64,000 bases of DNA from sequence record NZ_CP086424.1; one strand, written 5' to 3'. The position numbers were made by a program. Shown here one piece after another: positions 15,001 to 18,000 of the stretch. How positions within the stretch are numbered: the first letter of the stretch is position 1; every line of letters begins with the position of its first letter. Source of the DNA: a plasmid.

Positions 15001-18000
15001 CGAGCCCGTTTCTCGATGCCGATGATTCGACCGGCCAGCTTGATGAGGCGTTGCTGCCATTGGTAAGTGGCGTCGGTGCGCTGCTTGCTGGTCAGTACGG
15101 TGTTCAGCCAGAGAGTGTCAACGATCCCCATCAGGGTATCCAGTTTGCGGATCAGGTGTGCAAACTGAGCAACCTGAGGAGAGTTGATCTCGATGGTGTA
15201 TTCATTCGGGTTGGTGTAGCCGGGCATCATGTCGATGCCGTTGTCTTCCATCAGCTTGTTGAGCTGGGCGGTAGCTTTGTCCAGGTCTTCGGAGACCTTG
15301 GAAATGTGTTCCAGGATGACGGTTTCAACCTGGTCGATTTCGTCCTGCTCACCGATGATGCGAAGGATCACGTCGATGGAGAACAGGGAGTTGGAAACTC
15401 GCTCAAAGCTGCGTTCCATGACGCGCTGAGCTTGGAGGCTGTTTACTTTCAGAACTTGCTTGAAAACAGGGCGAGAGTAGTGGTTGCTGCGGTCGTTGTT
15501 TGTGTCCAGTGCTACTTGTGCTTCTGCCATTAGAGATACTCCTAAATTTGAGGTACAGATAAACGCACTGGAAAGGATAAATGCGGTCAATCTGTAACCT
15601 GACCTCTCGAAGTGCCCAAAATGGACAGTTACAGCGTTTTCTGTTTAGCAAAGGTGAGCTATATTTGAATCATCTTAGTCGCTCTGCGGCTATAGGTGAG
15701 ATAGCTGGTCTCCGAAAACAAACAGCATCTAGTCTTATGCCGTATGGCATTACTTAACCCCAAGCCGGGGGCTTCTCCCGGTTTTCGGGTGTTGCCCCTG
15801 TTTTTTTTACATAGGAGCAACACCATGCACATCATCACTTTCATTGTAGTTCTGCTTGCATCTCTGGGCGCACTGTACGTAGGCGCGAAGGCATTTGCTT
15901 TTTCCTTCATCGTTCTCGCTAAAGTGTTCCAGCGTATCGGTTTGTTCCTTTGGAACAAATTCGCAGTTCCTGCAATGCGGTCTGTACAGGCCGTCATCAA
16001 AGAACGTGCTGCCAAGGCTGAACAAGCCAAAGCAGTCGTTGAACCTGAGGTAACTCAAGTTCAAGAAGTCGCTAAACAAGAACCTGACTGGGATTATCTC
16101 GAAATCCCGACTTACCTTCGTAAGGGCAAGGAACTTGTTTGGTAATAACTGTCGCTGAGTAATCTTCGACACTTTCAAACCCATCGGGGCAACCATACCC
16201 CGACGGGGATGTTGCCCCTTTTTGCTTAGGAGCAACATCATGGAAATCGCTATCATCGCTTTGTGTATCCCTGCTGGTTGGGCAATCTCTCGTCCTTTCG
16301 TGAGAATCGCTGAATCGTTCGGTTACTGCTGATAGTCAACGCAAAGGGAGGGGGCAACCCCTCTCTTTCTGGTCAAGCCTCTGTGGCTTGTCCTCAAAGT
16401 CTTCTGGTGTCAGTTGGCTTTGACGACAAGCTACAGGGGGAATGTCGAATGCAACAGAATCTTCATGTTTACGACGATCACGCAGGCATCATCTATCTGG
16501 CTGATGGACGCGAGGTGAAATTTGATCCGAAACTGTATTCCAGCTCCTACCAGGCGCACAGTGAAGCAGTGAAGTGGGCCAAAGAAACCGGGGTCATTGG
16601 TCAAAACGACGATGTGGTGATGTTCGTCCATTGAGGGAGTAGCCTCCAGGAGAGGCTACTCTCCTCGCTCCTTAAAAGTCTTCTTACTCATGGTGAATAC
16701 CATCAGTAAGCAGATTTTGTTCTCTTCGGAGAGCGAAAAGTGCGATAGCTGGTCGCCAAAAACAAACAGCAAATTAACGTTAATTTACTAGCCCAACCGG
16801 GCGCATCCGCCCGGTTCGGGACGTGGTGCGCCTGTCACAATAGGAGCGCACCTATGTCTCAATACTCTCAATTCTCAGTAAGCAAGGTTTTCGGTATGCC
16901 CAGCATTCCGGAGAAGGTAACGGCCATCGGCTACGCTGACGGTTCAAACCCTTTCATCCCTGCCACTGATACCAACTACGTTTTCCGCAAAGAGTTTCTG
17001 CGAGAGGTCTTGGCCTATCTCAAAGAGCCTGGCGGTGACGCATTGTTCGTAACCGGCCCTACCGGGTCTGGCAAAACCTCAGGTATCACCGAGATCGCTG
17101 GTCGTCTCAACTGGCCTGTTCAGCAAATCACTGCCCACGGGCGGATGGAGCTGACAGATCTGATTGGACATCACGCTCTGGTCGCGGAAAAGCCTGGTCA
17201 ACCACCTGTCATGAAGTTCATGTATGGACCTCTGGCAGTCGCTATGCGTGAAGGTCATCTGCTCCTCATCAACGAGGTGGATTTGGCCGACCCTGCCGAG
17301 CTGGCTGGTCTCAACGATGTCCTTGAAGGGCGTCCCCTTGTGATCGCTCAGAATGGCGGGGAAATCATCAAGCCGCACCCGATGTTTCGTGTGGTCGTTA
17401 CTGGTAACTCTACGGGGTCCGGTGATGCTTCTGGTTTGTACCAGGGGGTGATGATGCAGAACCTCGCAGCTATGGATCGCTATCGTTTCACCAAAGTAGG
17501 GTATGCGGATGAGGAAGCTGAACTCAGCATTCTTGGCCGTGCTACTCCGAAACTTCCGGAAAATGTGCGGAAGGGAATGGTTCGGATTGCTAATCAGGTC
17601 CGCAAACTGTTTCTTGGCGAAAACGGTGAAGATGGTCAGATCAGCGTCACCATGTCCACTCGGACGTTGGTGCGTTGGGCGAAACTGTCTCTAGCGTTCC
17701 GTGGTGCCCCAAATGCTCTTGAATACGCCTTGGATCAAGCTCTGCTTATCCGTGCGGCCAAAGAGGAGCGTGAAGCCATCCTGCGTGTTGCGAAGGATGT
17801 GTTCGGGGACCAATGGCGCTAAGAGGTGACGCATGAAGAAAAATGACTGTTTGTGCCGTCGTTACACTGCTAAAGAGTGGGGCAATGACGAAACCACAAT
17901 AGAAGTCTTCATTGGCTACAAGTTGCTCCGGGAGCCCAGCTCCTCGGAGCCAGGCCAATTCACGATGGTCGAGCTACGCCGAACCGTCACTGATGGGAAA

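Follow-up and report, generated by a model that had tools for sequence, protein, structure and literature searches.

Vcrx087 of IncC conjugative plasmids, a small predicted membrane protein that probably mimics the C-terminal peptide of FtsZ

The conjugative plasmids of the IncC family carry a small backbone gene, vcrx087, whose product probably ends in a conserved and new mimic of the FtsZ tail, as judged from sequence comparison. The gene was analysed in a stretch of 64,000 nucleotides from plasmid record NZ_CP086424.1 (the window), where its open reading frame (ORF) begins with an ATG at 15825 and closes with a TAA at 16143-16145. The 106-residue product, MHIITFIVVLLASLGALYVGAKAFAFSFIVLAKVFQRIGLFLWNKFAVPAMRSVQAVIKERAAKAEQAKAVVEPEVTQVQEVAKQEPDWDYLEIPTYLRKGKELVW, has the C-terminus DYLEIPTYLRKGKELVW and ends ...KQEPDWDYLEIPTYLRKGKELVW. 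The frame, its length and this end had been given in a preliminary description of the DNA and are borne out by the window sequence; the E. coli FtsZ tail quoted there likewise agrees with the C-terminus read from NC_000913 (...TAKEPDYLDIPAFLRKQAD). Coordinate mapping (offset 49410, from vcrx088 coordinates) identifies the ORF as vcrx087 of the model plasmid pVCR94. The specialist literature on IncC lists vcrx087 as a gene of unknown function, and none of the papers found that name it assigns a function or draws a tie to division.

The resemblance of the Vcrx087 tail to the FtsZ C-terminal peptide is real and, by sequence statistics, above chance. In a pairwise BLASTP comparison, Vcrx087 Q85-K100 aligns with FtsZ K367-K380 at 10 of 16 identical positions (25 bits, E 3e-4), and the ungapped pair DYLEIPTYLRK and DYLDIPAFLRK reaches a BLOSUM62 score of 47, matched by one in 20,000 shuffles of the protein. 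A tail profile covering only the final 32 positions, built from 20 family members, was run against 177,635 distinct PDB sequences at E<=10. It returned five matches, four of them FtsZ proteins aligned on the C-terminal peptide: P. aeruginosa FtsZ (2VAW; E 1.9e-4 for the whole sequence, 0.012 for the best single stretch; aligned DDLDYLDIPAFLRR), a 383-residue FtsZ with length and tail as in E. coli (9ISK) and a 385-residue FtsZ (8H1O), both at E 0.088 on DYLDIPAFLRK (residues 370-380 and 372-382, respectively), and B. subtilis FtsZ (2VAM; E 1.1, DTLDIPTFLR). The fifth, 8FG5 (E 0.33), is a chitinase, and its aligned stretch is not an FtsZ tail. With the whole-family profile the top two PDB matches are FtsZ, the B. 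subtilis protein being aligned through linker and tail (residues 324-377, E 0.0096). As a control, the tail profile scores E. coli FtsZ at 15.6 bits versus 3.3 bits for the best other ORF among 1,219 six-frame ORFs of the window. Only the family profile detected FtsZ; phmmer with the last 39 residues of Vcrx087 found nothing in the PDB. The family profile also touches an internal tail-like stretch, VNYRDLDRPTVMRN, in the P. aeruginosa FtsZ linker (2VAW, about residues 336-362), upstream of the true C-terminal peptide.

Position by position, the agreement is closest with FtsZ tails of the form D-[L/M/I]-[D/E]-Y-L-D-I-P-A-F-L-R-[K/R], which are found in many non-enteric species among 99 gamma-proteobacterial FtsZ C-termini. 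In the IncC clade, D88-W-D-Y-L-E-I-P-T-Y-L-R-K100 lies in register with real FtsZ tails, with all 13 positions identical or conservative. The core of the motif class, [D/E]-[I/V]-P-x-[F/Y]-L-R-[K/R] after acidic and hydrophobic residues, is present in Vcrx087, and the peptide is predicted to sit at the end of a disordered linker, as in FtsZ. The conserved C-terminal peptide of FtsZ (CCTP, or CTP) and the Vcrx087 tail thus share a D-Y-L-[D/E]-I-P-x-[F/Y]-L-R-K core at the end of a linker that is variable, charged and disordered, with P-x-Y-L-R predicted to form a short helix. Unlike FtsZ, Vcrx087 has a membrane anchor in place of the tubulin-like GTPase domain and a G-K-E-L-V-W end in place of Q-A-D. 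Pfam and NCBIfam find no tubulin-like GTPase domain in it, and the BLASTP likeness is limited to 16 residues; on these comparisons Vcrx087 is not an FtsZ homologue.

The limits of the likeness were also explored. An extension into the FtsZ linker (AKAVV against the ClpX-site KPVAKVV, AKQEPD against AKEPD) was rejected as compositional, as BLASTP does not extend there and the linker is unconserved in the family. A strict DNA pattern for DYL[DE]IPx[FY]LR occurs three times in the whole of IMG/VR, about the chance number, and one of the three matches lies antisense inside a tail-fibre-like gene; IMG/VR thus gives no sign of a widespread phage version of the motif. In one viral record (IMGVR_UViG_2546825533_000001, around 650-700 of the locus), a G/P-rich ORF of 359 or more codons carries an internal DDYLDIPEFLRR after a low-complexity region. 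A 102-residue ORF from ENA metagenome data has a relaxase N-terminus (PF08751) fused to residues 349-383 of E. coli FtsZ and then a hydrophobic end; its probable origin is chimeric assembly or engineering.

The tail is predicted to be displayed from a membrane-anchored helix. Residues 2-21 are strongly hydrophobic and form a clear transmembrane (TM) segment (mean Eisenberg H 0.76), while residues 23-44 are less hydrophobic (mean 0.52), carry K33, Q36 and R37 on one face, and would form either a second TM segment or an interfacial amphipathic helix. AlphaFold2, run with the family alignment, predicts one continuous helix over residues 2-72 (predicted local distance difference test score, pLDDT, about 90 for 1-40), disorder over 72-89 (pLDDT below 50) and a short helix at 96-99. 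Of the two TM helices that the preliminary description had claimed, the first is therefore clear and the second plausible, not established; the flexible linker claimed there is in keeping with the predicted disorder and with the variability of this part of the sequence. Basic residues are absent ahead of the first hydrophobic segment in every family member, and five K/R residues fall within Vcrx087 45-64. By the positive-inside rule, this charge distribution would place the tail in the cytoplasm under a hairpin or a single-anchor model alike. A reading of residues 1-21 as a signal peptide is unlikely, as a basic N-region is lacking throughout the family. Pfam, NCBIfam, PHROGs and PADLOC return no significant family for Vcrx087. 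A juxtamembrane stretch, R52-S-x-Q-A-V-I58 (15978-15998), is semi-conserved and kept in many distant family members.

The family to which Vcrx087 belongs is very small: a collection of 1.84 billion proteins yields 16 representatives, one of 5.8 billion yields 29 clusters, and a search of one genome each of 185,579 species yields seven loci. At 22-40% identity, the N-terminal anchor is kept and the linker persists with variable length and sequence; the tail is the only conserved part, and P95, R99 and G101 are the sole residues invariant family-wide. The tail consensus reads D-W-x-x-[Y/F/L]-[D/E]-[I/V, sometimes E/Q/T]-P-[T/A/S]-[Y/F]-[L/I]-R-[K/R/Q]-G-x-x-[L/I]-[V/A]-W. Different codons are used in 116 of the 230 identical-residue codon pairs of the tail. 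Its residues are thus held through synonymous change, which indicates that purifying selection acts on the peptide. The preliminary description had made its proposal hinge on conservation of the motif in orthologues, and there the motif is indeed retained. This pattern fits a very conserved partner, probably one of the host.

More distant relatives occupy the same position on Pseudomonas megaplasmids of 245-410 kb, after acaB and before ssb-recT-exo (Table 1), where they were traced via the CbbQ ATPase. These loci (for example, WP_128662350.1 on pF061_2 and WP_108576343.1) resemble that of Vcrx087 in having traN, a divergent acaB, a small membrane protein and ssb-recT-exo. The proteins differ from Vcrx087 in being too diverged for a hidden Markov model (HMM) search to reach and in having a single N-terminal hydrophobic segment. 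Each has one TM segment followed by a long linker rich in P and A, and the C-terminus takes the form DYxxY[D/E]xP[A/T][F/Y/W][L/Q]RxGxxLxF. The residue equivalent to FtsZ I374 is A, E or S in all five, and one member has W-Q in place of F-L. In place of RSxQAVI they conserve T-P-R-Q-E-P next to the anchor, on its C-terminal side, and R-G-A-T-R-[V/I] ahead of the tail. One copy is annotated as a 'Loki-CTERM sorting domain-containing protein', in appearance a misannotation. From these alignments, the part conserved across the superfamily is 'acidic-x-P-x-aromatic-L-R-x-G-x-x-L-x-aromatic', and the full FtsZ likeness is confined to the IncC, IncA, pAQU-like and Aeromonas clades. An FtsZ-tailed membrane protein at this spot in all acaB plasmids was rejected, a Citrobacter MOBH plasmid having an unrelated 203-residue membrane protein there. 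A match of the R/K after L-R to the host was dropped as inconsistent across Pseudomonas plasmids. Proteins 100% identical to Vcrx087 were also found on a 611-bp contig of Kitasatospora arboriphila (L009) and a 5.3-kb contig of a Geobacter-type Trichlorobacter metagenome-assembled genome (L003); these are most likely contamination or mis-binned assemblies.

The gene itself is widespread. The region is IncC (IncA/C2) plasmid backbone, and 828 plasmid records match a 3-kb stretch of it, 723 with >=99% identity. Almost all of the 828 are typed conjugative, MOBH and MPF_F; the conjugative element of the preliminary description is thus an IncC plasmid. An identical or nearly identical vcrx087 is present in 816 plasmid records (814 typed conjugative).

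The differences between the IncC tail and FtsZ can be read against published ftsZ genetics. Within the core, three residues differ from E. coli FtsZ: E93 for D373, T96 for A376 and Y97 for F377. An ftsZ D373E allele is insensitive to MinC/MinD, keeps interaction with ZipA and FtsA, and replaces wild-type FtsZ (PMC4117426). A376T and F377Y come from selection in an ftsZ-null strain that had no other FtsZ, and they confer resistance to ZapC overproduction (PMC12607630). I374 and L378, critical for binding of ZipA, FtsA, MinC and SlmA (PMC4117426), have their counterparts in I94 and L98; R379 and K380, required for ClpXP recognition and function (PMC3983244), have theirs in R99 and K100. Taken singly, the three substitutions, each viable in FtsZ, are compatible with anchor binding and unfavourable for MinC and ZapC. 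This suggests a bias towards FtsA/ZipA and away from MinC/ZapC, as extrapolated from single alleles. The preliminary description had proposed a membrane-tethered decoy for six partners (FtsA, ZipA, MinC, SlmA, ZapD and ClpX). That simple form is weakened by the E/T/Y substitutions, the G and L-x-W end, and the polar I374-equivalent in distant members.

The context of vcrx087 ties its expression to plasmid transfer and entry. In the IncC/IncA backbone it heads the AcaCD-activated hde (host defence evasion) operon and is divergent from acaB. It lies directly behind an AcaCD-binding box and a structured leader; the preliminary description had placed it as the first gene after box copy 1. The box corresponds to pVCR94 65019-65047 (p 2.4e-13; Carraro 2014, PMC4207636 Table S3), and homologous loci L004, L016 and L019 have its core, GCCCAAAATGGACA, about 210 nt upstream of the ATG. 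A -10-like hexamer, TATATT, can be read at 15660-15665; a simple promoter scan makes no call there. Expression of vcrx087 rises from 5 to 3445 when AcaCD is supplied (Carraro et al. 2014, PMC4207636 Table S3), and Durand et al. describe Pvcrx087, divergent from acaB, as constitutively active and also AcaCD/SgaCD-responsive (PMC8373056). Roy et al. 2020 found vcrx087, vcrx089 and bet on one mRNA from Pvcrx087, the hde operon, and reported that countering restriction requires expression of vcrx089-090 in the recipient and that ssb-bet-exo mends CRISPR-Cas breaks during conjugative entry (PMC7498323).

Translation of vcrx087 is probably gated by its leader. The 3' hairpin of the leader (15788-15824) pairs GGUGUUGCCCCU with AGGAGCAACACC, buries the Shine-Dalgarno (SD) sequence and ends one base before the ATG; the hairpin is retained with compensatory changes in eight homologous loci. 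The window contains two instances of the pattern GTTGCCCCT..AGGAGCAAC, against 0 expected. Three leader copies (15762-15824, 16208-16239 and 16795-16860; fold z-scores -3.6 to -5), each with a GC-rich hairpin followed by an SD-burying hairpin that abuts the start codon, precede vcrx087, an unannotated mini-ORF and vcrx089, respectively. No Rfam family matches the vcrx087 leader, and Roy et al. 2020 mention only the vcrx089 copy (PMC7498323). The mini-ORF (16240-16332, plus strand) has 30 codons, encodes the hydrophobic MEIAIIALCIPAGWAISRPFVRIAESFGYC, has its own SD-sequestering hairpin of the vcrx087 type, and is not called in the RefSeq plasmid annotation inspected.

These features can be joined in a mechanism, the most likely of those considered. 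The hydrophobic N-terminus would anchor Vcrx087 in the inner membrane, and a flexible cytoplasmic linker of about 45 residues would present the FtsZ-like peptide. The tail could then dock into host pockets that normally hold the FtsZ tail, with FtsA and ZipA, the membrane anchors of the Z ring, as first candidates. A shared membrane plane and high expression might let Vcrx087 rival FtsZ filaments for these proteins despite micromolar affinity. Attachment of the Z ring would be transiently weakened or delayed in AcaCD-activated donors or just-entered recipients, and a brief delay of the first division might, speculatively, cut the risk of a plasmid-free daughter for a single-copy plasmid. That the tail docks in the FtsZ-tail pockets of FtsA/ZipA, competes with FtsZ and loosens Z-ring anchoring is a substantial possibility, a little short of an even chance. 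The fuller proposal is advanced tentatively: an E/T/Y-tuned mimic of FtsA/ZipA ligands, shunning MinC/ZapC, that transiently holds back or re-sites division at transfer or entry, buys time for establishment, and would be the first on any mobile element. FtsA/ZipA binding, and any effect on division, are inferred here.

Several observations favour such docking. FtsZ tail peptide and FtsZ compete for SlmA in vitro (PMC4117426), and E. coli grows less well when it makes soluble FtsZ fragments that span the linker/tail junction, which act as growth inhibitors (bioRxiv 10.1101/2022.01.04.474984). The predicted architecture, a disordered linker and a short helix at 96-99, mirrors the linker and tail of FtsZ and counts in its favour. 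The operon context also fits, with vcrx087 AcaCD-induced and first in line with hde genes that act in the recipient at entry.

Other observations weigh against docking on FtsA/ZipA. FtsZ has no equivalent of the invariant G101 or of the L-x-W end, and the family invariants coincide only partly with FtsZ determinants. The I374-equivalent is E, Q or T in about six distant plasmid members, in addition to the A/E/S of the Pseudomonas orthologues. In the reverse search, an HMM of 62 gamma-proteobacterial FtsZ tails gives Vcrx087 3.4 bits (E 3.5 among 1,220 ORFs). A376, F377 and the Q-A-D end never vary in the 99 gamma-proteobacterial C-termini, and the strict tail YLDIPAFLR[KR]QAD is absent from Vcrx087. 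The cytoplasmic placing of the tail is drawn only from charge distribution. Monomeric tail peptides bind weakly (ZipA 20 uM, FtsA 50 uM, SlmA 81 uM; PMC4117426), so many copies would be needed. Du and Lutkenhaus put the content of a cell at about 1,000 FtsA and 3,500 ZipA molecules. The literature searched holds no report of filamentation or of FtsA/ZipA binding for Vcrx087 and none of a division defect in IncC carriers, and the promoter is reported to be constitutively active (PMC8373056). A V. cholerae transposon insertion sequencing (TnSeq) screen did not flag vcrx087 (PMC7498323). With a constitutive promoter and no division defect in the literature searched, a strong division block is unlikely; gated translation would reconcile the active promoter with the lack of an obvious division defect.

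Some of the same observations raise a different possibility, that the tail is a docking helix for a partner outside the divisome (AcaB, Vcrx088/089/090, a component of the type IV secretion system (T4SS) or relaxosome, or another host protein) and that its FtsZ likeness is a convergent 'acidic-x-P-x-aromatic-L-R' amphipathic helix. This is possible, on the doubtful side. The family-wide invariants are P95, R99, G101 and a hydrophobic L-x-W/F end, G101 and the end being no FtsZ features. The polar I374-equivalents in about six distant members and in all five Pseudomonas orthologues, together with the weak reverse HMM score, point the same way. So does strict synteny: all loci examined have vcrx087 beside acaB, including those in which the genes further down the operon are ordered differently. 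The second semi-conserved stretch, RSxQAVI, hints at further interactions. However, an unbiased PDB search with the tail profile retrieves essentially FtsZ alone, and a run of 13 consecutive identical or conservative positions in the IncC clade matches gamma-proteobacterial FtsZ tails. The motif stays fixed while its neighbours diverge (Vcrx089 homologues at 30-50% identity), which is less expected of a co-evolving plasmid partner. Vcrx089-type ATPases are found in 1631 records versus 816 for Vcrx087, about twice as many, so that Vcrx087 is no obligate partner of that ATPase.

A gentler form of mimicry is also conceivable, in which a hold on FtsA/ZipA draws Vcrx087 to the division ring or new pole, where it would flag a spot on the membrane to be used by the incoming plasmid, by hde proteins or by the mating apparatus, with division not measurably disturbed. 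It draws on the same sequence evidence as docking on FtsA/ZipA. A constitutive promoter and no known division phenotype fit a non-toxic role better, and a single tail, with its weak affinity, is better suited to being recruited to a dense ring than to titrating FtsA/ZipA, present in thousands of molecules. However, nothing places any IncC function at the septum, vcrx087 is not reported as needed for transfer or defence evasion (PMC7498323), and FtsZ filaments at the ring would out-compete a monovalent tail. Overall, this role is unlikely.

Least probable, and very unlikely, is a membrane-active or self-associating amphipathic helix that binds no protein and makes Vcrx087 a small membrane modulator (holin-like, exclusion-like or a T4SS accessory): residues 94-106 have a helical hydrophobic moment of 0.53 with basic residues on one face, and PHROG matches to phage 'membrane protein' families are weak and non-significant, but IncC entry and surface exclusion are assigned to other genes (PMC11493245), no significant family match is found in the four databases, the invariant P, R and G and the acidic run before the helix are atypical of membrane-targeting helices, and the equal moment of E. 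coli FtsZ 374-383 (0.51) makes the property non-discriminating.

The features of the gene and its relatives are collected in Table 1. The locus reads traN, a lipoprotein of about 285 residues (sfx), acaB on the opposite strand, vcrx087, a CbbQ-type AAA ATPase, vcrx090, ssb, recT, yqaJ, DUF3150 and CobT/VWA; this order is present in the window and kept in homologues down to 30% identity. For acaB (vcrx086; 14889-15590, minus strand), the Pfam AcaB model matches at E 0.039, under the gathering score, and the longest ORF, from a TTG start, has 233 residues versus 213 in the annotated product.

Table 1. Coordinates of vcrx087, its control elements and its Pseudomonas counterparts (window positions, except for the loci named in the last five rows)
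Feature	Position	Strand	Basis or remark
AcaCD-binding box upstream of vcrx087	15609..15637	+	GAAGTGCCCAAAATGGACAGTTACAGCG in window; overlaps box of divergent acaB promoter
Transcription start, vcrx087/hde operon	15671..15673	+	Literature-mapped: 5' rapid amplification of cDNA ends (5'-RACE), pVCR94 65081-65083 (PMC4207636 Table S3)
5' leader, two hairpins	15762..15824	+	RNA fold -46 kcal/mol, z -3.6
vcrx087 coding sequence, 106 residues + stop	15825..16145	+	WP_000547566.1; RefSeq label 'hypothetical protein'
Hydrophobic N-terminal membrane region (predicted), residues 1-44	15825..15956	+	Kyte-Doolittle, Eisenberg, AlphaFold2
Juxtamembrane helix and variable charged disordered linker (predicted), residues 45-89	15957..16091	+	Alignments, AlphaFold2 pLDDT
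FtsZ-tail-like core D90-Y-L-E-I-P-T-Y-L-R-K100 (= FtsZ D370-K380)	16092..16124	+	Sequence comparison
Family-specific C-terminal extension G101-K-E-L-V-W106	16125..16142	+	G101 invariant; L104, V105 and W106 nearly so
Pseudomonas positional orthologue, L023	3108-3419		
Pseudomonas positional orthologue, L024	3480-3800		
Pseudomonas positional orthologue, L025	201-512		
Pseudomonas positional orthologue, L026	168-494		
Pseudomonas positional orthologue, L027	201-512		

Modulators of division carried by mobile elements or acting under stress form a varied group that includes lambda Kil, Rac KilR, Qin DicB (with MinC and ZipA), T7 Gp0.4, SulA-type proteins, MciZ and CbtA. All are small proteins whose action on the Z ring or on its anchors is limited in time. 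To our knowledge, none of them works by copying the FtsZ tail; their targets are FtsZ itself or, by redirection, MinC. Vcrx087 shows no sequence relationship to Kil, DicB, Gp0.4, SulA, CbtA or MciZ (no significant match in Pfam, NCBIfam, PHROGs or PADLOC), and the literature searched contains no published phenotype of filamentation or Z-ring defect from vcrx087 expression. Closer in the proposed principle are dominant-negative FtsZ fragments and tail peptides, of which a 14-mer binds ZipA, FtsA and SlmA and competes with FtsZ (PMC4117426). By analogy, Vcrx087 is predicted to work like such a fragment. However, these fragments and peptides are soluble laboratory constructs, whereas Vcrx087 is natural, predicted to be membrane-tethered, regulated, and altered in its motif. 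The preliminary description was aware of no FtsZ-tail mimic on a mobile element, and none was found in the literature searched. Mobile-element modulators of division are therefore known, and one that copies the FtsZ docking peptide is undescribed in that literature.

In enterobacteria and vibrios, IncC plasmids rank among the chief carriers of genes for carbapenemases and multidrug resistance, and vcrx087 is a conserved, highly expressed backbone gene of this widespread and clinically important family. If its tail engages FtsA/ZipA, it would represent a new plasmid route into the host cell cycle, by way of a copied docking peptide and not by attack on FtsZ. It would also offer a natural experiment on which residues of the FtsZ tail select among its many partners, and a possible handle on plasmid establishment. 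The hypothesis that arises from the sequence is that the plasmid may tap the host division machinery when its transfer and entry genes switch on.

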